From the NCBI GenBank assembly GCA_008632985.1, contig QPGO01000010.1:62001-126000 (forward strand): a stretch of 64,000 bases of DNA, written 5' to 3'. Source of the DNA: Psammoneis japonica (Eukaryota). Every line of letters starts with the position of its first letter. Within the stretch, counting starts at the first letter, position 1. Below the pieces are notes generated by a model, which was not told the DNA's origin, did no database searches, and saw only the letters and a list, made by a program, of their open reading frames with translations. Shown here in pieces: positions 21,623 to 54,960 of the stretch. The position numbers were made by a program, and so were the translations under genes.

Positions 21623-22754
21623 ATGGCAGCGATAAACATGGAAGTAGACGCACCTACTGGAAATGGCGACGGTGTTAAGAAAAGGGCTTTGGATATTCAT
21701 CCGGTAGGTTTGCTTTTGCCTGTTCGAGATGCAATGAATTTTCCTGCTCGCATCTTGTATCTTGTATGATTCAGTGACTTTTCCAAGCCATAGGATTGAC
21801 TGTCGTATCTGACTCTTGATATGAGGTACACTGAACAATGTTTGCTCCGTTCTTTCTCTTAAACAGCTTGCGTTGGTTCACATGGCTGATCAGCATACGC
21901 GTATCAAGTGTGGCGGATCCGTCCTCAGCATCGATTCTCCCGTCGTGGGTCTGTTGTTTGGGCAGAGTGGAACGATTCAAGATGCAGAAGATATTTCAAT
22001 CTCGGCGTCCGATCCGACGGCAAAGCAACAGGTATCGCTTCATCAAGCGGTCTTTCCTCGGAACGCTGTTGTAGGTTGGTACCGTGTGGCGGACAACGAT
22101 GCTGCCCCTACGGCAGATGATGTGAGAACTACTCAGTCACTACAGCAGCTGTATACAGCGGACGATTTCTGCTTTCTCCTCTTGCAAGTCGCCAACGGCA
22201 GTGGTGAGCAGGAACAACCTAAAGGACCGCAGCAACAGCCACTCCCACTCTCCATCTATAGGATGCACCCTGATGGATCTGTATTGCTGGAAGTTCCGGA
22301 CTGGCAGTTGGCAACGACGGAACCGGAGCGCATTGCCATTGAACGCGTCGTTAGGGAAGAGCCCACATCATCAAAAGAGAACCAAGATGCCGGGATATCA
22401 TCTGCCTTTGCGACGCAGCTAAGCACCGTGGAGGATTCCCTCCTGTCCATGAAGGAACGCGTAGACGTCATTTTGTCCTATCTACAGTTTATGCAAAATG
22501 TCGAGAATCCCAGTCACGCTCAGCTGGAACTCTTGCGAGAGATCCAAGGACTCGTATGCCAATTGGGTGCCTTGTCTAGTTTTGATGCGCCCGACAAGAC
22601 CAGTGCGCGGCTTGTTTCACATTTGGGGGCCGTGGCAAAGACCGTGGTTGCCATTCAGGGATACACGGATAAGGTGCGGGTTCTCGCAGAAAGCCGCAAC
22701 GCTCGGGCCACGCGAGATGCGAAGGCATCCACTGTAGCCAGAATGGCTTTCTAG
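21623..22754 (+). CDS. CSN6: COP9 signalosome subunit 6 (MPN domain); 2 exons
   Basis: Exon 1 21623-21703 and intron 21704-21866 (gtaggt...aaacag). Spliced sequence LDIHPLALVHMADQHTR...VVGLLFGQ...VVGWY...EPERIAIE...LLREI matches the CSN6 pattern. Confidence 0.8.
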
Positions 22755-25149
22755 AAACGAGAGTGTAAACAACAAACTACTAGAGGGGTTCATTTGTTTA
22801 CATCTCTTATCTAGCTCTACCGTCTTTAGTCGATTGGTGAATCCGAAGTGTTTTGGGGGTAGGTATTGAGTTCCCACGTATATCCGTGCTCTTTCAAGAG
22901 TTGATTGAACGCGACTGCATGGGGGCAGTAGCCCTACATTGCTTCAAGCTTTGCTCGAAGGGATGGCTGCGAAGCCATACACTGTAGCCAGAATGGCTTT
23001 CTAGAAACGAGAGTGTAAACAACAAACTACTAGAGGGGTTCATTTGTTTACATCTCTTATCTAGCTCTACCGTCTTTAGTCGATTGGTGAATCCGAAGTG
23101 TTTTGGGGGCAGGCATTGAGTTCCCACGTATGTCCGTGCTCTTTCAAGAGTTGATTGAACGCGACTGCATGGGGGCAGTAGCCCTACATTGCTTCAAGCT
23201 TTAGTTGGATAAATGCTGTGTGATGATGCTGTGCACAACACATGCCCAAATGTGTGTGCGGAGAAGGGACTCAACAATTAGCCGAGTGGTGGTTTCTTTG
23301 CCTCTTGGGTTGTTGAGAACCTCCCGCACTCGTTAGGCAGTGTACAGCATTCTGAGTGGTTGTGAGTCTTTACGCTTCCTGAGGTCGCTGGTTCGAGTCG
23401 GCCTCAAATCCAAGCCTCCTTTTCTTTCTCGGCCTGCCCCTTTCCAACCCCATCCGGGGTGGGTGTGCTCAGAACACTGTGCACCACCTGACGAGCACGG
23501 GAGGTTCTCAACAACCCAAGAGGCAAAGAAATTGCCACTCGGCCAACTGTTGAGTCCCTTCTCCGCACACACATTTGGGCATGTGTTGTGCACAGCATCA
23601 TCACACAGCATTTGTCCAACTCTCCCTCTCGCCGCAGGATGGGTCATCGCCATGTGGCGCATCCGCACAGCGGACTCACGAAATTTTGACCATGCACTCC
23701 CTCTGTCAGGCAGGCGGATGGGTCAGCGCCATGTGGCGCATCCGGCCAATGCCAAGGGAGGAGTGGGTTCGAATCCCAACCGCCCACCCCGGATGGGGTT
23801 GGAAAGGGGCAGGCCGAGAAAGAAAAGGAGGCTTGGATTTGAGGCCGACTCGAACCAGCGACCTCAGGAAGCGCAAAGACTCACAACCACTCAGAATGCT
23901 GCATACTGCCCAACGAGTGCGGGAGGTTCTCAACAACCCAAGAGGCAAAGAAGTTGCCACTCGGCCAATTGTTGAGCCCCTTCTCCGCACACACATTTGG
24001 GCGTGTGTTGTGCACAGCATCATCACACAGCGTTTGTCCAACTCTCCCTCTCGTCGCAGGATGGGGTGTCGCCTTGGGGCGCATCCGCACGGCGGACTTG
24101 CGAATTTGTCCATGCACTCCCTCTGTTGGGCAGGCGGATGGGTCAGCGCCATGTGGCGCATCCTGCCAATGCCAAGGGAGGAGTGGGTTCAAAGCCCAAC
24201 CGCCCACCCCGGATGGGGTTGGAAAGGGGCAGGCCGAGAAAGAAAAGGAGGCTTGGATTTGAGGCCGACTCGAACCAGCGACCCCAGGAAGCGCAAAGAC
24301 TCACAACCAGTCAGAGTGCTGCACACTGCCTGACGAGTGCGGGAGGTTCTCAACAACCCAAGAGGCAAAGATGTCACCACTCGGCCAATTGTTGAGTCCC
24401 TTCTCCGCACACACATTTGGGCATGTGTTGTGCACAGCATCATCACACAGCATTCATCCAACTCTCCCTCTCGTCGCAGGATGGGGCATCGCCTTGGGGC
24501 GCATCCGCACGGCGGACTTACGAAATTTTGACCATGCACTCCCTCTGTTAGGCAGGCGGATGGGTTAGCGCCATGTGGCGCATCCGGCCAATGCCAAGGG
24601 AGGAGTGGGTTCGAAGCCCAACCGCCCACCCCGGATGGGGTTGGAAAGGGGCAGGCCGAGAAAGAAAAGGAGACTTGGATTTGAGGCCGACTCGAACCAG
24701 CGACCTCAGGAAGCGTAAAGACTCATAACCACTCAGAATACTGTACACTACCTAACGAGTACGGGAGGTTCTCAACAACCCAAGAGGCAAAGAAATTACC
24801 ACTCGGCTAATTGTTGAGTCCCTTCTCCGCACACACATTTAGGCATGTGTTGTGCACAGCATCATCACACAGCATTTATCCAACTGCTTTGCTCGAAGGG
24901 ATGGCTGCGAAGCCATACACTGTAGCCAGAATGGCTTTCTAGAAACGAGAGTGTAAACAACAAACTACTAGAGGGGTTCATTTGTTTACATCTCTTATCT
25001 AGCGCTACAGTCTTTAGTCGATTGGTGAATCCGAAGTGTTTTGGGGGTATGTATTGAGTTCCCACGTGTATCCGTGCTCTTTCAAGAGTTGATTGAACGC
25101 GACTGCATGGGGGCGGTACATTGCTTCAAGTTTTGCTCGAAGGGATGGC
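22717..25149. repeat. Tandem triplication of a ~250-bp segment spanning the convergent 3' ends of CSN6 and the sulfotransferase gene; copy 2 is interrupted by an insertion
   Basis: actgtagccagaatggctttctag... recurs at 22731, 22981 and 24919. Confidence 0.9.
23203..24885. mobile_element. Non-autonomous foldback-like element with 261-bp terminal inverted repeats, AG...CT ends, a 5-bp TSD (gcttt) and an internal ~421-bp tandem array
   Basis: Ends are agttggataaatgctgtg... and ...cacagcatttatccaact. gcttt lies at 23198-23202 and 24886-24890, while the empty site caagctttgctcg is seen once in copy 1 at about 22945. TIRs are 23203-23463 and 24625-24885; units start at about 23468, 23890, 24310 and 24732. 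Confidence 0.9.
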
Positions 25150-27168
25150 CTCAACTCGCTACCATAGGCACCCGTGTTGACGGGCTCGTCTGACGCTTCT
25201 TTTACAGCAGCCATGTTTGCTTGTTCGACGTCAACACCAATAAACTCCAGAACTTGCCTCGTCAAGTTGACCGGTTTCGTCTTAATGTCGTCAAAGTTCA
25301 AAATCAAAATTTGATCCTCCGGAAAATGCTTGTACCACCGTCGCAACGCGAGATCGTAGTTGCTGCGTTCCTGATGAGAAGCGTCGCCTGCCTTTCCGAG
25401 AAAGTACTCGTCGGGATAGTCGGCTGGATCAAAGGTGTCTGTGTTGCCTTTTCGTGTTTGATGACGAAGATTCTTTCTGACATGACTCCAAGCACGAAGC
25501 ACAATGTCTCGAGCTTGAAATATTATCTTTACGTCGGGAAACAAGAGCCGTATTTCAGCGATATCCTCTTCGGTCAAGCTCATGTAATGTGGCGTGATCT
25601 CTCCGTGAAACAATCCTGGTTTATGGCGGTCTGGAAACTGCTTGCTATACCATGCCAAACCTTTGTGACGATTCCAGTCCCAAAAATGAAGCTCCTTCTT
25701 GACGCCAAAGTTGATTTGCGTGGGACACGAGATGAGTAGCATTGAATGCAACCAGCTTGTACCAGCACCTTGTGCACCAATCCCAAGGAACGAAATGTTT
25801 ACGTCTTTTTCATGATAATCAATAGGCAATATTTCGCCACTTGGCGACTTGCTTACGGGATCAGGCTCTTTCACTGTCTCTGCTGTCAAGCTTTTGAAAA
25901 AGGTCTCCCATCGTGGGTCCTCCAGCATTTTGTCGACGTTTACGGAGCAAAATAGTTTTGATTGCCTAGCTTTTCGAAACGTAAATCGAAGGTTCTGCTC
26001 ACCAGAGTTTGAGATGTAAAAGTCAGGCAGCATGTCCCTCTCCATAGCAAGCGACGCGTTTAGTAATTGATCGGCTTGCTCATCTGATAGGCACTCAAGC
26101 GGATAGTCTTTCCGTATTCTGTATTGAAGCGCCTTGATATGCTGTCCCGTTGCATTTACCACGTCGATGCGATGCAAACCTTTCTTAATCCACCCTTTTT
26201 TGTAGGCTGCAATAGAAAGCATGTCGTGGTGAAGATCATTGTCATAGTCAGGAAGACATTTCGTTTCTTCACTGGGCATGCTTGATAGCATTTCGCATGC
26301 TTGGGATGCTTCTGGAATCATGCGACAATAAAAGTTGACTAAGAAGTGCCCAGGCCGATGCCTGTTGAACACTACAAGTTCGGTATTGTTCAAATCTGAG
26401 AGTCGGTGATCCCACTGCTTCAGGAGTGCACGAGGATGAATGGATTTCTTCGACGTGACGCGATCAAATACATGAGGAAAGGATGGGATGTTCTTCCCTC
26501 CTAGACCAGGCCACTCTTCAAGGGTCTTTGATAGTCCATTCATTTGATAATAATTATGCGGTAACCACTCGTGAAGACGACGGTAGGTAAAGACGACCCG
26601 AACCCGCCATTGATGAAACAGTGGTATCAGCGGTTTCCACAGAAAGTCCTCCGCGTCGTCATCCTTTCGGACAGCACCGAACCAATCGTAAGAAATAAAG
26701 ACATTATGATTCAATGCCCGGTGGAGATTCAGAGCTGCCTCCAACTTTTCCCAAGCAAACGTACAGTTGCGTTCAACTTGTCGTCTACACAAACGACTCA
26801 AGTCGCTTAAGTCGGAAGCTGAGTGGAGGGGTGAGTGGCCGAGAAAAAAGATATTGTCATTCTCCAGCATGTCTTCGTGCTCTACAGCAAACTGCTGTAT
26901 TCCGCTGCTATTTGTCTTTTGAGGACCAACATGAATAATCAATAGTGGCAGGCCTGCATCGGTTTTTCGTCTCAACATGATGCTTGCTGGCCGATGCATC
27001 GTTACTCGAACCTTCAGGAATCCGAGAAATGCGGATGGCCCCTTCCGTTTTCCCTCGGGCCCCACCAATGATTTCAAAGTCTATGATGTCCAGGTACCAG
27101 ACAAACCATGTCACCAACGCCACCAGCCAGACAGTCACAATAAAACCGAGAGTAAGCGGTCTTGCCAT
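25014..27168 (-). CDS. Two-domain sulfotransferase-like protein (N-terminal P-loop family domain plus C-terminal heparan-sulfate-sulfotransferase-like domain); one apparent frameshift
   Basis: TM leader MARPLTLGFIV at 27168 joins the 687-aa ORF through a 1-bp indel at the T5 run 26963-26967. Motifs HVGPQKT, FLGIGAQGAGTSWL, KKELHFWD, GEITPHY and RAWSH. Confidence 0.75.
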
Positions 27169-30329: not shown

Positions 30330-31960
30330 ATGCATCTGATGCTTCAACTTCTTCTCACTTGACTTTTTCTGCTGCTGTCATCAAGAATGCTGAAGCTGCT
30401 GCTTCTGCTGTGACAAGGTCCAACTGTCTCAAAACAACGATGACTGCTTCTGACTTGAGCGAAACAGAGCTCATGGGCAAACTGCATGGAAAGGCTTTAG
30501 CTTTCATTCCTCCTCACATTGTCAAGAGTGCAGCTGCCAAGGCTGACAAGTCTCAAGCGGCCTGTCACTTGCCTGCTGAGGCACGCTTTGCGGCTCTCAA
30601 GCAGAGTGTGCTGCGCTCTGGATGACGAGATGCAGCAGCACCGGCAAGACCACCATCACCACTGCTTTGAAAGCATGTGTGCAGATTGGATGGTTACAAT
30701 CTTCAAGATGGCCAACCATCACTTGGGTTTTTGGAAGCGGATCGTGCCGAGTCTTTCCAAAGGATGGGAGAAATGGTGACACTCTTTGCCTGTGCCGGCG
30801 TCATTGCTCTGGTTGGCCTCATTTCTCCTTGTTGCTGTGATTGTGATGCTGTCCACAAGCTTCATGAAGATCAGGGCATTCCCTTTACGAAGTGTTCTTG
30901 GACGTGCCCATCAATGAGTTGAAGAAGCGCAACCCAAAGGGTCAGTCTGCCAAGGCAGATTTGGGTGAACTCAAGCACTTCACTTGCATTGATGATCCTT
31001 GTGAAGAATCACTCAACCGGAGATTACCTTGAAGACTCATGAATTGCAGATTGAAGAATCTGCAAACATCTTGTTCCCACAGTTGGAACGTCACGGTGTT
31101 CTTGTTGGACCTCCCAAGACTCCTCCAGGACTTCCCAATCCTGACAGCGACAAGTTGATTGATTTGCACGTGCGCGAGCACTTTCAACTTGCATGCCGAC
31201 TGCATTGGCGAAGCAGAGACTCTTCCCAAACTTTTGATTGCCGATGTTGATTTGAATTGGCTTAAAGTCATTGGAGAAGGTTGGGCCAGTCCACTCAAGG
31301 GTTTCATGTGCGAGGAAATGCTTTTGGAGATGCTTCGCTTTAATTCGATTCTTGTTGATCCGTTCAATCTCGCCAACGATTCCATGAGATTGGAACGCCA
31401 GACTAATTTCTCCAACTTTCAAGAACGCCCTCCTCCGACGAGGGTCAGCGCATCCATTCCCATTGCACTCTCGTGCACTTCCTTCACCAATGATGCCATT
31501 GAAGCATCCGACAAGCGTGCCGTGGCACTCGTGACTCAAATGGGCGAGACAGTGGCCATCTTGAGAGATCCTGAAGTCTGTGTCAAGTCTCAATTAAGAA
31601 ATTGTGTCTCGCATGCACGGTGTTGTTGATCCGGGACATCCTTGCATTCATCACATGTGCGAGGGAGGCAACTGCTTCTTTGGAGGTGAAGTTGAACTGT
31701 TGGACCGCATCCGACATACAACGACGGCCTTTTGACAGGTGGCGCACGACTGCTGCCGAATTGGTTGAGGAATTCTAGAGCAAGGGAGCTGATACGATTT
31801 ACGCTTTGCAAACCCGCAGCCCGACTCACCCGTCGTCCACACAAGCTAACACTTCTTTCTTCGTTTCTTTCTCCGGATCGGGCTGATGTCGAGGAATTAC
31901 ACTGGATGCTTTGGAAAAGGATGGTGTCATTGTCATACCCATCTCATGCTGGTGACACCG
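30330..31960 (+). pseudogene. Decayed APS kinase / ATP sulfurylase fusion (PAPS synthase-like) pseudogene, TpA- and CpG-eroded
   Basis: Fragments in shifting frames: LWMTRCSSTGKTTI, LDGYNL, LFACAGVIALVGLISPC, KHFTCIDDPCEE, PPGLPNPD, DVDLNWLKVIGEGWASPLKGFM, VAILRDPE, GGEVELLDRI and ALQTRSPTH. Confidence 0.85.
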
Positions 31961-40714: not shown

Positions 40715-41775
40715 CCCATTTTCGTCTTTCCGATCGATGACCCAACATAAAATTTCCGCGTAGAATCTTCGCACCGAAGACTTAATTTCTTGTCCCGGTC
40801 ATGCACATTTTGAAAAAGCATGACCCCACACTTTCGCCAACTCTCAAGCGATGGAATTTCGAAAGCTCCTGTCCAGACTCTCAGCTGTTGCTTTGACGAC
40901 CATCCCCGACGACATCAAAAAGATTAAAACCTGCCTTCATTCAACTTTTTGTCATTCGCTAAGAAATGCCCTCGAATCGAGCATCGACAAATCAGTCAGC
41001 GAAGAATCGCCTGCCGTGATCCGCTTGAGACGAGACACCGCCATTGCTGAAGCGAGATTTCACAAATTTGCACCAGTTTCTTCTTCTCATGGATCTTCTC
41101 ATGGGAAAAAAAAACTGCTGTACAGCACCTCGTCAATGAAGCGAGGAATGATGTTCCCAGCGGCGATTGCAGCCCTGTCCTCACACCTTTTGCCGAACTT
41201 CGCAAACGAAATTGTGATCGTTGCAAGGACACTCGACATCCCTACGAAGCCTCTCCTCATCATGCACGTTGGACCTCCAAAGACAGGCACCTCGACTGTT
41301 CAATGGTGTGCATCTCATCACGGGAAGCAACTCAAAAAGGACAACATTTGCTGTCTTGGTCACGGAAGCATGCTGAACACGCACAACCCATGGAACTTCT
41401 GCATGGGCAAGTTCATGAAAAATGAACCACTTTGCAAAAAGGAATGGACTGATTTGGAACAAGTGATCGACAGCCATTGCGCTCAGCATTGTGCCATCTT
41501 TACATCGGATGAGCTCTTTGGCAAGCCACAGAAAACAATTCTCATGCGACAACAGCTTTGGAGTCACATCATTCGTCTTCAAAGGAAGTGGAGCGTGCGA
41601 ATCGCATTTTCACATCGCCGCTGCTGCAATTGGCTTCTAAGCTCTTGCCATCAGCACCACAATCCAAACCCACGAGAAACAAAGATGCTTCCAAAACAAA
41701 CAGCGATTCGGCGACAAGAGTGGCCTTCAAATGGCGGCAGGGAGACCGTGCCCTTCACTGATCATTTGCGAGCAC
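40715..41775 (+). pseudogene. Truncated, TpA-erased duplicate of the promoter and 5' half of the sulfotransferase-like gene at 43461
   Basis: Colinear with about 43060-44120. QWCASHH..DNICCLGHG and HRRCCNW replace QWYASHH..DNIYYLGYG and HRRYYDW. Homology ends at about 41775. Confidence 0.9.
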
Positions 41776-43460
41776 TTGCGTCATCTACTTTCTTCTTGCC
41801 AGTTGGTTTCCAGATGCATTTTTCATGCCCTGCCCTGCCCCCCCCCCCCCCGTCACGAAGACCTCCTCCCGCCCTCGATCCGACAATGCATCCAGATTTC
41901 ATGGCCGCCAAGAAAGACCATGGGGTTGAGGGGTTGAGAGGCGACAAAGCTGTCATTCTTGCCGGTGCTTCTGTTGTCATTTGCAGGACAGGGCCAAAAA
42001 AAGGCTTCTGCAGGGCTCTCACGACCACTGTGCAAATGAGTCCACACAATCGCTGTGTTTGTCTCTGCTGCAGATGTGATTGTTGGCATCCAAGGAACAC
42101 ACACGGATGGATGGTGTCATTTTCATTTTTGCCAGTTTCCCATGACAGATGCAGAAAATGAAACTCTAATTTCCAACGTTGACAACACACCATGTGTGAT
42201 GTCAAAAAGGAATGGCAGAATGGTTTTTTTTTTTCAAAGAGAGAAGAGGAGCCAATTTGTGCAGCAAACGCGGTTGTTCCCCACCATTGACACAGACTGA
42301 CTGTGCCGTCAGCACCAGCCAGCCATGCAAGTCCATTTGGCAATTGTGATTCCAGTCATCATGCAGTGAGAGTGAGAAAGGATTCAGAATGTGCAACATT
42401 GATGGCAGATGCCACCATGCAGGACTTTTGCAGGGCAGCAACTGGCAAGGAAATGAGCAACAATCCGGGCTCCAATTCTTCTTGTGTCGAGCCAAGCAGA
42501 GTTGTTGTGACGATTGAGACCTGCGAGTGCAAGCTCAAGAAACAAAAAGTGGAGACTTGAGAAGGTGAACAAGCAGAAACAAAACACCAAGCAGTGCAAG
42601 GGGAACAATGCTTGGATCAGCCAACAGAGCCAATTGAGCACAAAACAAAAGTCATGCTGGGCTCTCAGTCAGAACTGTGTTGCAGTGCGTCGTTGCTGCA
42701 TTCCTGCAGCAGCAGCAAAAATTGTCGAATCCAACATTCCAAGTTGGCCTTGAAAGCTGATGTTGAAATGCTGCACCTGGCAATGCACCATGATTCATGT
42801 TTTTTTGCTCATCGCCCACCCAGTCAAAAGCGGCAGGAGAAACACAGAGACCAGGCTTTTGCTGTGTTGCAGCCAGACACTGCTGTGTTTTGGGAATTGT
42901 TTGTCACTGTTGGTTGCTGGCTGCTCTGCTCTAGAACCACAGTCTCTAGCTAAAGTTTGCTCGTAGTAGGCCCTCTGTACCGGTAGAGAGCAGCAGTAGA
43001 GACAAGGAGAGCATTGCAGACAACAATTATTGTGCTGCGGCCTGGACGCCTCCGGGTTAGCCCGTTTTCGTCTTTCCGATCGATGACCATCAAAATTTGT
43101 GTATGGGATTCCCACGTATAATCTTCGTGCAAAGACACAATTCTTGTCCCGGTCATGCATCTTTTGAAAAAGTATGACCCCACACTTTCCCCTCTCAAGC
43201 GATGAATTTCGAAAAGCTCCTCGTCGTCCAACTCTCCCGACGCCGTTGCTTCGACGACCGACCCGACGACCTCAAAAAGATTTTAACTTTCCCTCATTCA
43301 ACTTTGTTTATTATTCGCTAAGAAGTACCCTCGAACGTCGACAGATCAGTCAGCGAAGAATCGCCTTCCGTGATCCGCTTTGAGACGAGAGACCGCCATC
43401 ACTGAAGCGAGATTTCACAAATTTGAAATTTGTACGAGTTTCTTCTTTCTCGTGTAAAAG

Positions 43461-44732
43461 ATGCTGCCCAGTACCTCTTCAATGAAGCGAGGGGTGCTGT
43501 TCCTAGTGGCGGTTGCAGTCCTATCCTTGTGCCTTGTACGGAAAGTAGTAAACGAAGATTTGATCGTTGCAAGGACGCTCGATGTCCCTACCAAACCTCT
43601 CCTCATCATGCACGTCGGACCTCCAAAGACAGGCACGTCGACTATTCAATGGTACGCAAGTCATCACAGGAACCAACTCAAGAAGGATAACATTTATTAT
43701 CTTGGTTACGGAAATATGCGGAACACGCACAACCTATGGAATTTCTGCATGGGCCAAGACAGGAAAAATGAAACGCTTTGCAAAAAGGAATGGACTGGTT
43801 TGGAACAAGTGATCGATAGCCATTACGCTCAGAACCATACAGTGTTTATATCGGATGAGCTCTTTGGGAAACCACAGACAATAAGTCTTGTCCGACAACA
43901 GCTTTGGAGTCACATCATTCGTCTTCAAAGGAAGTGGAGCGTACGAATCGTATTTTCACATCGCCGCTACTACGATTGGCTTCTAAGCTCTTACCATCAG
44001 CATCATAATCCAAACCCACCCCAAACAAAGAAACTTCCATTAGAAAGAGCGATTCGGCGACAAGAATGGCCTTCGAACGGCGGCAGGGAGACGGTGCCCT
44101 TCACTGAGTATTTGAAAGCACATTTGATATCGCCGAGTTTCCGCGAGAACGACCCCAGTATTGTCCACGCTTTGTTGAAGGATAACTTCTCCACAGTATG
44201 GACCTTCAATATGCACGAGCTGTCTAGCGGTGATTTGACACAGGACTTTTATTGCAAAATGATACCCGAGGCAGTGTCGTTGTGCAGGTACCTCCAATCC
44301 GAAACTGAAAGTGTCGAGACACAGAACCCGTCCTCGTCCAAAGAAGGCTACTACGACAGAATCGCTTGGGAAGCGATAAAACGTGGATGGATCAACGCAA
44401 CTCTCCCTCGATTCGTTGTCGGACTTGCCGTCAGAAAGTTTGCGACAAACGAGCTCAACTTGAATACCATGTCTGACTTCCCTTTGAAGTGTCCGAAAAC
44501 AAGTCACATGGAGCAGCTATTGAATATATCGCTAGGCATCGAACGAGCCATAGTGCCGGAATTTTACGCATCACAAAAGGGAGAACTTGGAATGCGAGAG
44601 GAGTTTGCTCACGCCACTGAAACCAACAAGTTCTGCTCAGTGGATGTTGACAAAGCACTACAAGACCCAAGGTGGGAAGTGTTCTTCAAGAATCTTCCGG
44701 AACGTATCAATAGCATGGAAGCAGCAGAGTAG
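43461..44732 (+). CDS. Type II membrane sulfotransferase-like protein
   Basis: TM leader; HVGPPKTGTSTIQ, SDELFG, HRRYYDW and FCSVDV. Confidence 0.8.
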   Translation: MLPSTSSMKRGVLFLVAVAVLSLCLVRKVVNEDLIVARTLDVPTKPLLIMHVGPPKTGTSTIQWYASHHRNQLKKDNIYYLGYGNMRNTHNLWNFCMGQDRKNETLCKKEWTGLEQVIDSHYAQNHTVFISDELFGKPQTISLVRQQLWSHIIRLQRKWSVRIVFSHRRYYDWLLSSYHQHHNPNPPQTKKLPLERAIRRQEWPSNGGRETVPFTEYLKAHLISPSFRENDPSIVHALLKDNFSTVWTFNMHELSSGDLTQDFYCKMIPEAVSLCRYLQSETESVETQNPSSSKEGYYDRIAWEAIKRGWINATLPRFVVGLAVRKFATNELNLNTMSDFPLKCPKTSHMEQLLNISLGIERAIVPEFYASQKGELGMREEFAHATETNKFCSVDVDKALQDPRWEVFFKNLPERINSMEAAE

Positions 44733-53966: not shown

Positions 53967-54960
53967 TTAGTGTCTGCACAGGGACAGACCAGCTCCGTCT
54001 TCCCACTGGGGTCGTCTGGAGCTGATTTGAGAGGAGGGAGTGCGGGATCCCCGGAGGCAACGGTGAGTCGCCCGGACTGTGGTGACACTCATTCTCGCAT
54101 TGACGTAGCCGCATGCTTCAGAGTGTGGCTTTTGCCATTTGTCTGATGGTCTCCAGGCCATCTTGCGGAGCATTGCCTTGGCTTCTTTGCCAAAGAGTCC
54201 GTCGCATGACACTGCGAAGGGCGTGAAATGATGGCGTTGCTCAAGACAGGGCTTGAGGCACTTGCGCTTTTTCTCCCGTTCGTGCATTGCTGGGACATCC
54301 TCTGGTGTTTTGGACAGGCATGACTTCAGGTCCGTGTCGGGAATGCGAACATCCGTCACCATGTCTGTCCTTCCATCCCAGAGTCGCATGCCGAGAAGGT
54401 CGCCGCGATCGCCATCCTTGGACTTGTTGGAGTCAGTGTTTCCTGGGGAGCTGGTGGGGGGTGGGGGTGCTTGAGCTTCCTGTGCTGCAACCAGCAGGGT
54501 TGATTGGAGGTTCGTCGCGCACGTGGGAAGGTTTGCAAGCCTTGCCCATTGGGTCGCACCTGGGTTGTCACGGACTTCATCGTGTCGTGAGATGACTGGG
54601 CCGCCCTTCTTGCACTGAAGAGCATGGTTCATTGTGAATTTGCATCCACATCCATCGCAGTGCTCCGGGAGGTCCGGTGGAGCACTGCCATGCTGCAGGA
54701 AGAGCGCATTGCGGAACTCTTGGCATGAGAGTTCTGTGCCATTCAGTGTCGAAGGGCATGCTGAGAGCCACGTGCCTGTCTTGGTGCTGCGCTTGACAGC
54801 TCTGGCCTGGAGGTCAGGCAGGGTCCTGAGGATTGTTTTGAGGGTCTCCCTGTGCACTGTGACCTTTCGATTGGCCACTTCTTGTCAGGCTTCTTTTCGC
54901 AACAACGACATCCTACGATCGAGTGCGGCATGCTGTGAGCATTGTGACAGATTCTCAAGT
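53967..54960 (-). mobile_element. 3' part of a non-LTR retrotransposon with a zinc knuckle and restriction-like endonuclease (CRE-like), TpA-erased
   Basis: GTWLSACP..NGTELS..EFR, CDGCG..F...HAL.CKKGG....RHD, RGDL, DVR, EKKRK(C), FTPF..S.DG and RATHRCLRGSR. Positions expected to be Tyr read Cys or His. Confidence 0.8.

Follow-up and report, generated by a model that had tools for sequence, protein, structure and literature searches.

The genome of Psammoneis japonica, a diatom, was studied here from a 64,000-nucleotide stretch of contig QPGO01000010.1 (assembly GCA_008632985.1, positions 62,001 to 126,000 of the forward strand), referred to below as the window and numbered from its first letter. 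Within it, a tandem-array terminal-repeat retrotransposon in miniature (TRIM), i.e., a mini long terminal repeat (LTR) retrotransposon, lies next to copies of a 250-bp unit of host DNA. We found that, in the TRIM arrays of this genome, A:T pairs change to G:C almost solely at TpA steps (hereafter TA sites), on either strand independently, preferably in the contexts TAC and TAT, and after insertion of the element. At least at some insertions, the process leaks up to about 0.6 kb into the neighbouring DNA at around 1,000 times the background rate. Near-identical repetition alone is no trigger, the position of a sequence being what matters and not the fact that it is repeated. The three base differences that separate two copies of the window unit are very likely leakage from the TRIM domain.

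The duplicated unit and the inserted TRIM array

An original prediction, made from the window alone, had aligned two copies of the unit (22731-22952 and 22981-23202) and pointed to three differences close to an insert. Our alignment agrees: exactly 3 of the 222 positions differ (T22860/C23110, T22864/C23114 and A22882/G23132), all three read as TA changed to CA, CA and TG in copy 2, and, counted from the element edge at 23203, the derived bases lie at 93, 89 and 71 bp, inside the 100 bp that had been proposed. TA-step bases constitute 32 of the 222 compared, and three TA transitions out of three changes have a probability of 1e-4 if substitution is uniform, or of 3e-3 if all substitutions are transitions. 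A third copy of the repeat, at 24891-25149, had been overlooked; no fourth was found by genome search, all three copies being in the window. Three sequencing runs (X1, X2 and X3) of one sample and one study, possibly the assembled sample itself, were compared with 22953-23463; X3 gave nothing for this interval. The third copy and an X2 contig both carry T, T and A at the three sites, and the three changes are therefore derived in copy 2. Furthermore, a 197-bp X1 contig spanning 22980-23176 at depth 111 carries C, C and G with 0 mismatches, so that the derived haplotype is not a consensus-calling error. The features of the locus are as follows:

22718..22952, plus strand: copy 1 (U1) of the 250-bp unit, with TA intact at 16 of 16 sites in the 222 bp compared
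22953..23202, plus strand: junction and copy 2 (U2), chimeric in the three-way alignment
23110..23132: derived bases C23110, C23114 and G23132, with ancestral contexts TAC, TAC and TAT on the strand of the mutated A
23198..23202, plus strand: left 5-bp target-site duplication, identical to 24886-24890
23203..23463, plus strand: inverted TRIM piece, one 155-bp LTR and 106 bp with a primer-binding site
23468..24463, minus strand: inner TRIM array, LTR 23468-23621 and two internal-plus-LTR units of 420-422 bp
24464..24885, minus strand: outer TRIM unit, with 5' LTR 24731-24885 and polypurine tract 24464-24472
24886..24890, plus strand: right 5-bp target-site duplication
24891..25149, plus strand: junction and copy 3 (U3), with T, T and A at the three sites

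The junction of copy 2 and two states towards its 5' end match copy 3, 22948-23065 being identical to 24886-25003, and its 3' part matches copy 1; an unequal crossover would explain this chimeric structure. Among the 8 substitutions of the older divergence between U1 and U3, no more than 1 is a TA transition, whereas all 3 differences between U1 and U2 are (Fisher p=0.024). Copy 3 contains, in its 3' part, the coding end of a sulfotransferase gene, and its 5' part kept 10 of 10 non-coding TA sites within 130 bp of the TRIM. That the changes are recent, as had been claimed, holds only relative to other changes (there is no non-TA difference between the two copies, and the target duplication is perfect). 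As a separate observation, copies 1 and 2 carry a 6-bp insertion (22925-22936 and 23175-23186) without counterpart in copy 3, which introduces a stop in the sulfotransferase frame together with a short inverted repeat, and which looks like an excision or repair footprint.

The insert had been described as a foldback element, and this was incorrect: it is a tandem-array TRIM with an inverted end. The TRIM unit measures 422 bp, made up of a 155-bp LTR and a non-coding interior of about 267 bp, and reads on the minus strand. Immediately below 24731 lies a primer-binding site, in which two 9-nt blocks can pair with the 5' half of the tRNA-Met encoded at L065, as in copia/Ty5; on the other side, a 9-nt purine run directly adjoins the next LTR. 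The LTR ends are non-canonical (AGT...AGT), the usual ones being TG...CA. A search for the family gave 190 candidates, of which 40 were scored and 20 loci were fetched and compared along with the window copy. Target duplications were checked at the 7 of these 21 loci that have both ends visible, and they are 5 bp long, perfect at 6 loci and with a single mismatch at 1. Thus, short direct terminal repeats, a small non-coding interior, a 5-bp duplication, a primer-binding site and a polypurine tract are all present, as is typical of TRIM-family members. A foldback or miniature inverted-repeat (MITE) DNA transposon was considered and rejected, as direct ends were found at 4 of the 7 two-ended loci (L037, L039, L041 and L042), and the inverted ends here and at L045 stem from internal inversions. 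Several arrays show such inversions, head-to-head or tail-to-tail (window 23203-24885, L035, L040 and L045); those at the window, L040 and L045 are flanked by 5-bp duplications, which indicates that the inverted copies integrated as such.

Loss of TA within the window TRIM is uneven. The outer right unit, which served as the reference for ancestral TA sites, kept 14 of 14, and these include every site with TA in at least two copies; the next two units kept 0 of 14 each and the inner LTR 0 of 9, so that 0 of 37 remain in the inner array, where each unit displays its own pattern of CA and TG. The inverted left piece kept 5 of 11 sites and lost 6. Flank and TRIM are thus mutated on the same side. 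Changes in the inner units could partly be inherited from a donor copy. At three other loci (L041:4806, L045:5267 and L037:5496), a TA site formed solely by the last T of the LTR and the first A of the target was mutated; at L041 and L045 the changes consequently happened after insertion, and at L037 this is probably also the case, assuming an A in the original target. Many copies of the family sit within long TA-free blocks, and the least mutated TRIM (L039, 4022-4586), which kept 22 of 23 TA sites, lies between a RING-type and an RBM22-like gene (names assigned by eye). Another TRIM (L040:2500-3534) lies about 160 bp upstream of an eIF1A-like gene, also named by eye.

In the left flank at the window locus, 3 of 8 TA sites were lost within 130 bp of the element, against 0 of 26 further off (p=0.009, with a cut-off picked after the data had been seen). 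With 3 hits in 32 target bases and none in the 412 others, the rate there is at least 7.5-fold that of other positions (95% bound), in line with the earlier proposal of a process much faster than background mutation. From these three sites alone, spreading at the window locus is suggested; this evidence being thin, we turned to other insertions with controls.

Insertion-bearing and insertion-free copies compared

Searches for empty alleles or paralogues were made at seven TRIM flanks, and two were informative (those on contigs C405 and C1). Four matched only themselves at full length (L037 right, L040 right, L034 left and L040 left), and the left flank of L038 gave only a partial match of 93%, ending 440 bp before the edge.

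On C405, a TRIM is inserted about 80 bp into a segment of 7.6 kb. Four other copies of this segment, around 99% identical, are free of TRIMs; these represent three independent control loci, as C7 and C441 have common flanks, and all abut older TA-poor DNA. TA loss in the TRIM-bearing copy declines with distance from the element, with 5 of 6 sites lost at 0-200 bp, 4 of 6 at 300-500 bp and 1 of 5 at 500-650 bp, and 0 of 276 beyond. Within 650 bp, this copy lost 10 of 17 TA sites, while the four TRIM-free copies lost 0 of 68 (p=7e-8 against the three control loci). The TRIM-bearing copy has 14 private changes in 638 near sites (2 of them non-TA T-to-C changes beside TA hits) and 2 in 6,002 far sites, and with so few far private changes it is not an older copy. 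Target bases at this one locus were hit 11 times in 34, compared with 2 changes in 6,002 sites, a relative rate of about 970-fold with a lower bound of about 270, which further sustains the claim of a rate far above background. TA was also lost at ten sites in the controls (C83 5, C7 4 and C54 1), all more than 4 kb off and mostly by tandem repeats or at the far end. The 7.6-kb segment is itself a young mobile element present in five near-identical copies (L035/L086 and L078-L085; C405, C7, C54, C441 and C83), with tandem repeats of about 212 and 330 bp at one end and without a Pfam match in its two tested open reading frames (ORFs).

The second informative comparison, between C1, which carries the insertion, and the empty allele C221, covers a region that includes a CLC channel gene remnant; 108 TA sites were lost in the filled allele and 2 in the empty one. 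This pair provides the spectrum of the process: A-to-G changes affected 95 of 292 TA, 6 of 485 AA, 3 of 467 CA and 2 of 445 GA dinucleotides, i.e., a 26-fold preference for TpA over ApA. The outcomes were distributed over both strands (41 TG and 54 CA) without strand runs, neighbouring changes being alike in 46 of 94 cases. Across four alignments, the trinucleotide contexts were hit at 70 of 144 TAC, 55 of 126 TAT, 28 of 105 TAA and 16 of 101 TAG (p=2e-8, a value in which the two strands of one site are non-independent).

TA loss precedes CpG loss in the young domains (11 against 1 at C405, and 95 against 16 at C1), while CpG differences dominate in an older allelic pair, C381/C182 (56 against 9). 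These two allelic contigs (L042 and L043; 97% identical) have a TRIM in common and differ at TA sites in both directions: the TA-erased 5.7 kb contains 56 CpG-type differences and 9 at remaining TA sites, the genic 3.9 kb contains 5 CpG-type differences, and the erased half ends sharply about 100 bp before a gene start. Within the window, a dead duplicate of a host gene (40715-41775 compared with 43061-44121) lost 31 of 41 TA sites evenly along 1 kb, against 2 of 9 in the reverse direction; the live copy, which starts about 130 bp from a TA-free block, was spared.

The idea that mutation spreads from the element into host DNA is thus borne out at C405, where insertion-free controls are available; it is suggestive at the window locus and does not hold generally. 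Likewise, the distance-dependent excess expected at other insertions was found at C405 and was missing from seven ends in TA-normal, gene-rich DNA when these were pooled. Only the left end of L040, a promoter region that is not polarisable, looks TA-poor in the composition test. Spreading is therefore real at some TRIM insertions, variable in reach or patchy, and often absent beside genes.

The genes that flank the duplicated unit are convergent:

21825..22754, plus strand: last exon/ORF of a COP9 signalosome subunit 6-like (CSN6-like) gene, from the ORF list
25014..27080, minus strand: sulfotransferase-domain ORF (PF00685, E 2.5e-12)

The CSN6-like ORF matched Pfam PF13012 (E 1e-8), with PF01398 below the cut-off, and its top match in the Atlas was CSN6 (0.95); its last codons and 3' end are contained in copy 1, and the end of the sulfotransferase ORF falls within copy 3. 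Three other window ORFs had no Pfam match. Atlas clusters for one window protein point to a diatom as the source. A TA-erased stretch at 31024-31629 has a plus-strand frame that, by eye, we take to resemble ATP sulfurylase, and a Pfam search of the opposite frame gave no match. A second TA-erased ORF (53967-54884, minus strand), without a Pfam match, looks to the eye like the C-terminal, cysteine-rich part of a protein of non-LTR retroelements. ARAGORN detected no tRNA in the window, and Rfam gave sub-threshold matches only, among them a tRNA-like stretch of the TRIM interior on the plus strand (23714-23787; tRNA-Sec, 21 bits against a cut-off of 47, E 0.57).

Proposed history, mechanism and competing explanations

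We propose that the 3' ends common to two convergent genes were duplicated, giving U1-U3, and that the TRIM would have inserted at the end of a U1-type copy; three adjacent TA sites would then have mutated, and an unequal crossover would have produced the arrangement U1-U2-TRIM-U3. If the element inserted first, copy 1 would come from an insertion-free homologue and copy 2 from an insertion-bearing one, and U1 and U2 would act like insertion-free and insertion-adjacent alleles. The X2 contig joins the CSN6-like gene to a single U3-type unit, and may represent either an ancestral allele or merged convergent transcripts; X2 appears RNA-like though labelled 'DNA?', with an element depth of 35 against about 10^4 in X1, and the continuation of an X2 contig past an LTR matched none of the fetched loci. 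The observed depths of two X1 contigs (75.5 and 111) were modelled against 10 genotype pairs: the assembled haplotype combined with a 'CSN6-C,C,G unit-TRIM-U3' homologue predicts 69/103, the homozygous assembled haplotype 97/123, and the assembled haplotype with an empty two-copy homologue 77/94, a weak hint in favour of the crossover.

We consider it probable that the process is a region-targeted TpA hypermutation leaking from TRIMs, with silent chromatin as its guide. A high-copy TRIM would seed silent chromatin, marked by 5-methylcytosine at CG together with methylation of histone H3 at K9 and K27; this would spread over a variable distance and be halted by an expressed gene. In the diatom Phaeodactylum tricornutum, 5-methylcytosine (5mC) and H3K9/K27 methylation fall chiefly on young copia elements, with proximity effects up to 1 kb (PMC9998398), and in the genome studied here it is gene ends that are spared; both points led us to propose silent chromatin as the guide. 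The silent chromatin would in turn recruit a TadA/ADAT-type enzyme that deaminates adenine in DNA, and the resulting hypoxanthine would be copied as G. Deamination as the chemistry is put forward tentatively. E. coli TadA reads UACG (PMC13170351), and TAC is likewise the context most often hit here; the genome has nine PF00383 matches, including ORFs that look TadA-like and ADAT2-like by eye. A YAC preference of adenine base editors was not confirmed in the papers searched.

Several observations weigh against this proposal. At the window locus, the right flank lost 0 of 10 TA sites (pooled with the left flank, p=0.06), the two TA sites closest to the edge, at 18 and 24 bp, are unchanged, as is the TA spanning the junction, and the right unit of the TRIM itself is untouched; hence there is no smooth gradient there. 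The U1 and U3 alleles and the U2/TRIM junction were absent among the X1 contigs listed; as contigs drop variant arms, these gaps are no proof of absence. The clean gradient depends on one insertion, C405, whose neighbour is itself a mobile segment rather than a host gene. At C1, the loss profile is flat, with 95 of 145 sites lost across at least 3.3 kb, and it runs on into an older TA-free block; the TRIM itself measures 0.58 kb, and may be a passenger there, not necessarily the cause. At the seven pooled ends, the observed/expected ratio of TA was 0.75 at 0-200 bp against 0.63 at 1-2 kb. With respect to the enzyme, the candidate deaminases, judged by eye, are ordinary housekeeping-looking proteins expected in any eukaryote and thus uninformative, and no clear context preference is reported for TadA-based editors in rice (PMC11369719).

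The flat C1 domain, far larger than its TRIM, together with the many family copies in TA-free blocks and the few control losses near internal tandem repeats or the far end of the 7.6-kb segment, would fit a scenario in which the domain comes first, i.e., in which mutation is triggered by pairing of tandem duplicates, as in repeat-induced point mutation (RIP), or belongs to a pre-existing silent domain where TRIMs merely land. We regard this as improbable: the pairing partners U1 and U3 lost no compared TA sites, and the four TRIM-free copies of the C405 segment kept every TA site near the corresponding position (0 of 68 lost against 10 of 17) despite abutting TA-poor DNA, with the TRIM-bearing copy no older by its non-TA changes. 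The same targeting with a different chemistry is a more serious competitor, although still rather unlikely in our judgement. Here, an error-prone repair by a polymerase eta-like enzyme in methylated repeats, or a miscoding modified A or T at TpA, would produce the changes; polymerase eta is known for A-to-G errors at WA sites (PMC2213188), the same blocks also show an excess of CpG transitions (56 in the TA-erased part of C381/C182 against 5 in the genic part), non-TA T-to-C changes stand beside TA hits at C405, and the absence of strand runs fits many independent events rather than single-strand bursts. However, a WA-specific polymerase would not predict the 26-fold lower rate at ApA (6/485 against 95/292), and TpA loss running ahead of CpG loss in the young domains also speaks against this chemistry.

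Two simpler accounts concern the three window changes only. As these lie within 23 bp, a single gene-conversion event with a TA-erased paralogue or allele elsewhere as donor might have introduced the C, C, G patch, the nearness of the TRIM being incidental; this is very improbable, since the genome search returned just the three window copies (an unassembled homologue could still be a donor) and such a donor would itself need TpA hypermutation. An assembly or base-calling artefact, or chance, might be invoked because there are three sites only and all runs come from one sample that is possibly the assembled one; we give this almost no credence, given the exact 197-bp X1 match at depth 111, the low chance probability (1e-4 to 3e-3) and the same spectrum in more than 100 events at other loci. 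Region-targeted hypermutation leaking from the TRIM thus stands as our preferred explanation for this locus.

Relation to known systems

The TRIM locus and its family provide a control that is new here, namely the comparison of DNA with and without the insertion: filled and empty copies indicate that the insertion, and not sequence or copy number, determines where DNA mutates, and that adjoining host DNA can mutate faster locally as a result of an insertion. Accordingly, insertion-adjacent alleles diverge fast, and LTR-based dating in the Psammoneis japonica genome is biased. TpA hypermutation, so far a peculiarity of two viral regions of a single alga, thereby becomes a process that depends on position and operates in a diatom. 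Knock-out tools exist for diatoms, and a direct assay follows, in which a TRIM is inserted or tracked and its flank sequenced. The context TAY, hit on both strands without strand runs, offers a fingerprint for the enzyme hunt; should that enzyme prove to be a natural DNA adenine deaminase, it would stand as a rare example from nature of what adenine base editors have been engineered to do. More broadly, and as a proposal held with clear reserve, diatoms may possess a transposon-guided DNA adenine editing that is switched on locally by insertion, acts without repeat pairing and spreads from 0.1 to several kb with silent chromatin; each new retroelement would then be an approximately 1,000-fold A:T-to-G:C mutator of the host allele, possibly within the lifetime of a culture, and the system might constitute a second eukaryotic genome-defence mutator beside RIP, common to stramenopiles and rhizarians.

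No relevant literature on TpA hypermutation or depletion in diatoms was found, in a search whose coverage left subscription journals largely outside, and the process has otherwise been reported only in one unrelated alga, Bigelowiella natans, in which integrated nucleocytoplasmic large DNA virus (NCLDV) and virophage DNA undergoes TpA hypermutation (Mettrop et al., bioRxiv 10.64898/2026.01.13.699255). As far as the accessible part of that preprint goes, both systems share A-to-G and T-to-C changes at TpA on both strands, confined to regions and at around 1,000 times background; TpA-poor sequences of B. natans are enriched in transposase and reverse-transcriptase domains, and the adenine deaminase ADAT2 is proposed there as a cause, so far unproven. 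In B. natans, only some of the clonal lines show activity of the process. Conversely, the B. natans targets are viral regions of 25-186 kb, whereas those examined here are a retroelement of 0.4-kb units, its flanks and host-derived duplicates; the host here is an unrelated diatom, and the rate, measured there, is inferred here from copies. The accessible text makes no mention of diatoms, flanks, spreading, boundaries or trinucleotides, and neither edge leakage nor the TAY preference appears in it.

The likeness to RIP resides in a dinucleotide-specific mutation of repeats that leaks into adjoining single-copy DNA (PMC12543289, PMC9453070). The change is nevertheless opposite, as RIP converts C to T at CpA and creates TpA, while here TA becomes CA or TG; and whereas RIP, a premeiotic process that requires RID/DIM-2, depends on repeat length and identity, the partner copies and the five-copy segment here are untouched unless they are TRIM-adjacent. 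The element resembles plant TRIMs and tandem-array TRIMs in its short direct terminal repeats, non-coding interior, 5-bp duplication and arrays in which LTR and internal parts alternate; a case with two inverted TRIMs has been described, in maize (bioRxiv 10.1101/010850). It differs from plant TRIMs in its diatom host, its AGT...AGT LTR ends and its pairing with the 5' half of tRNA-Met. Finally, the leakage may parallel the spreading of methylation in P. tricornutum, where the silent mark on young copia elements can reach neighbours up to about 1 kb away (PMC9998398); the mark there is a reversible one on cytosine, whereas the change at adenine described here is permanent.

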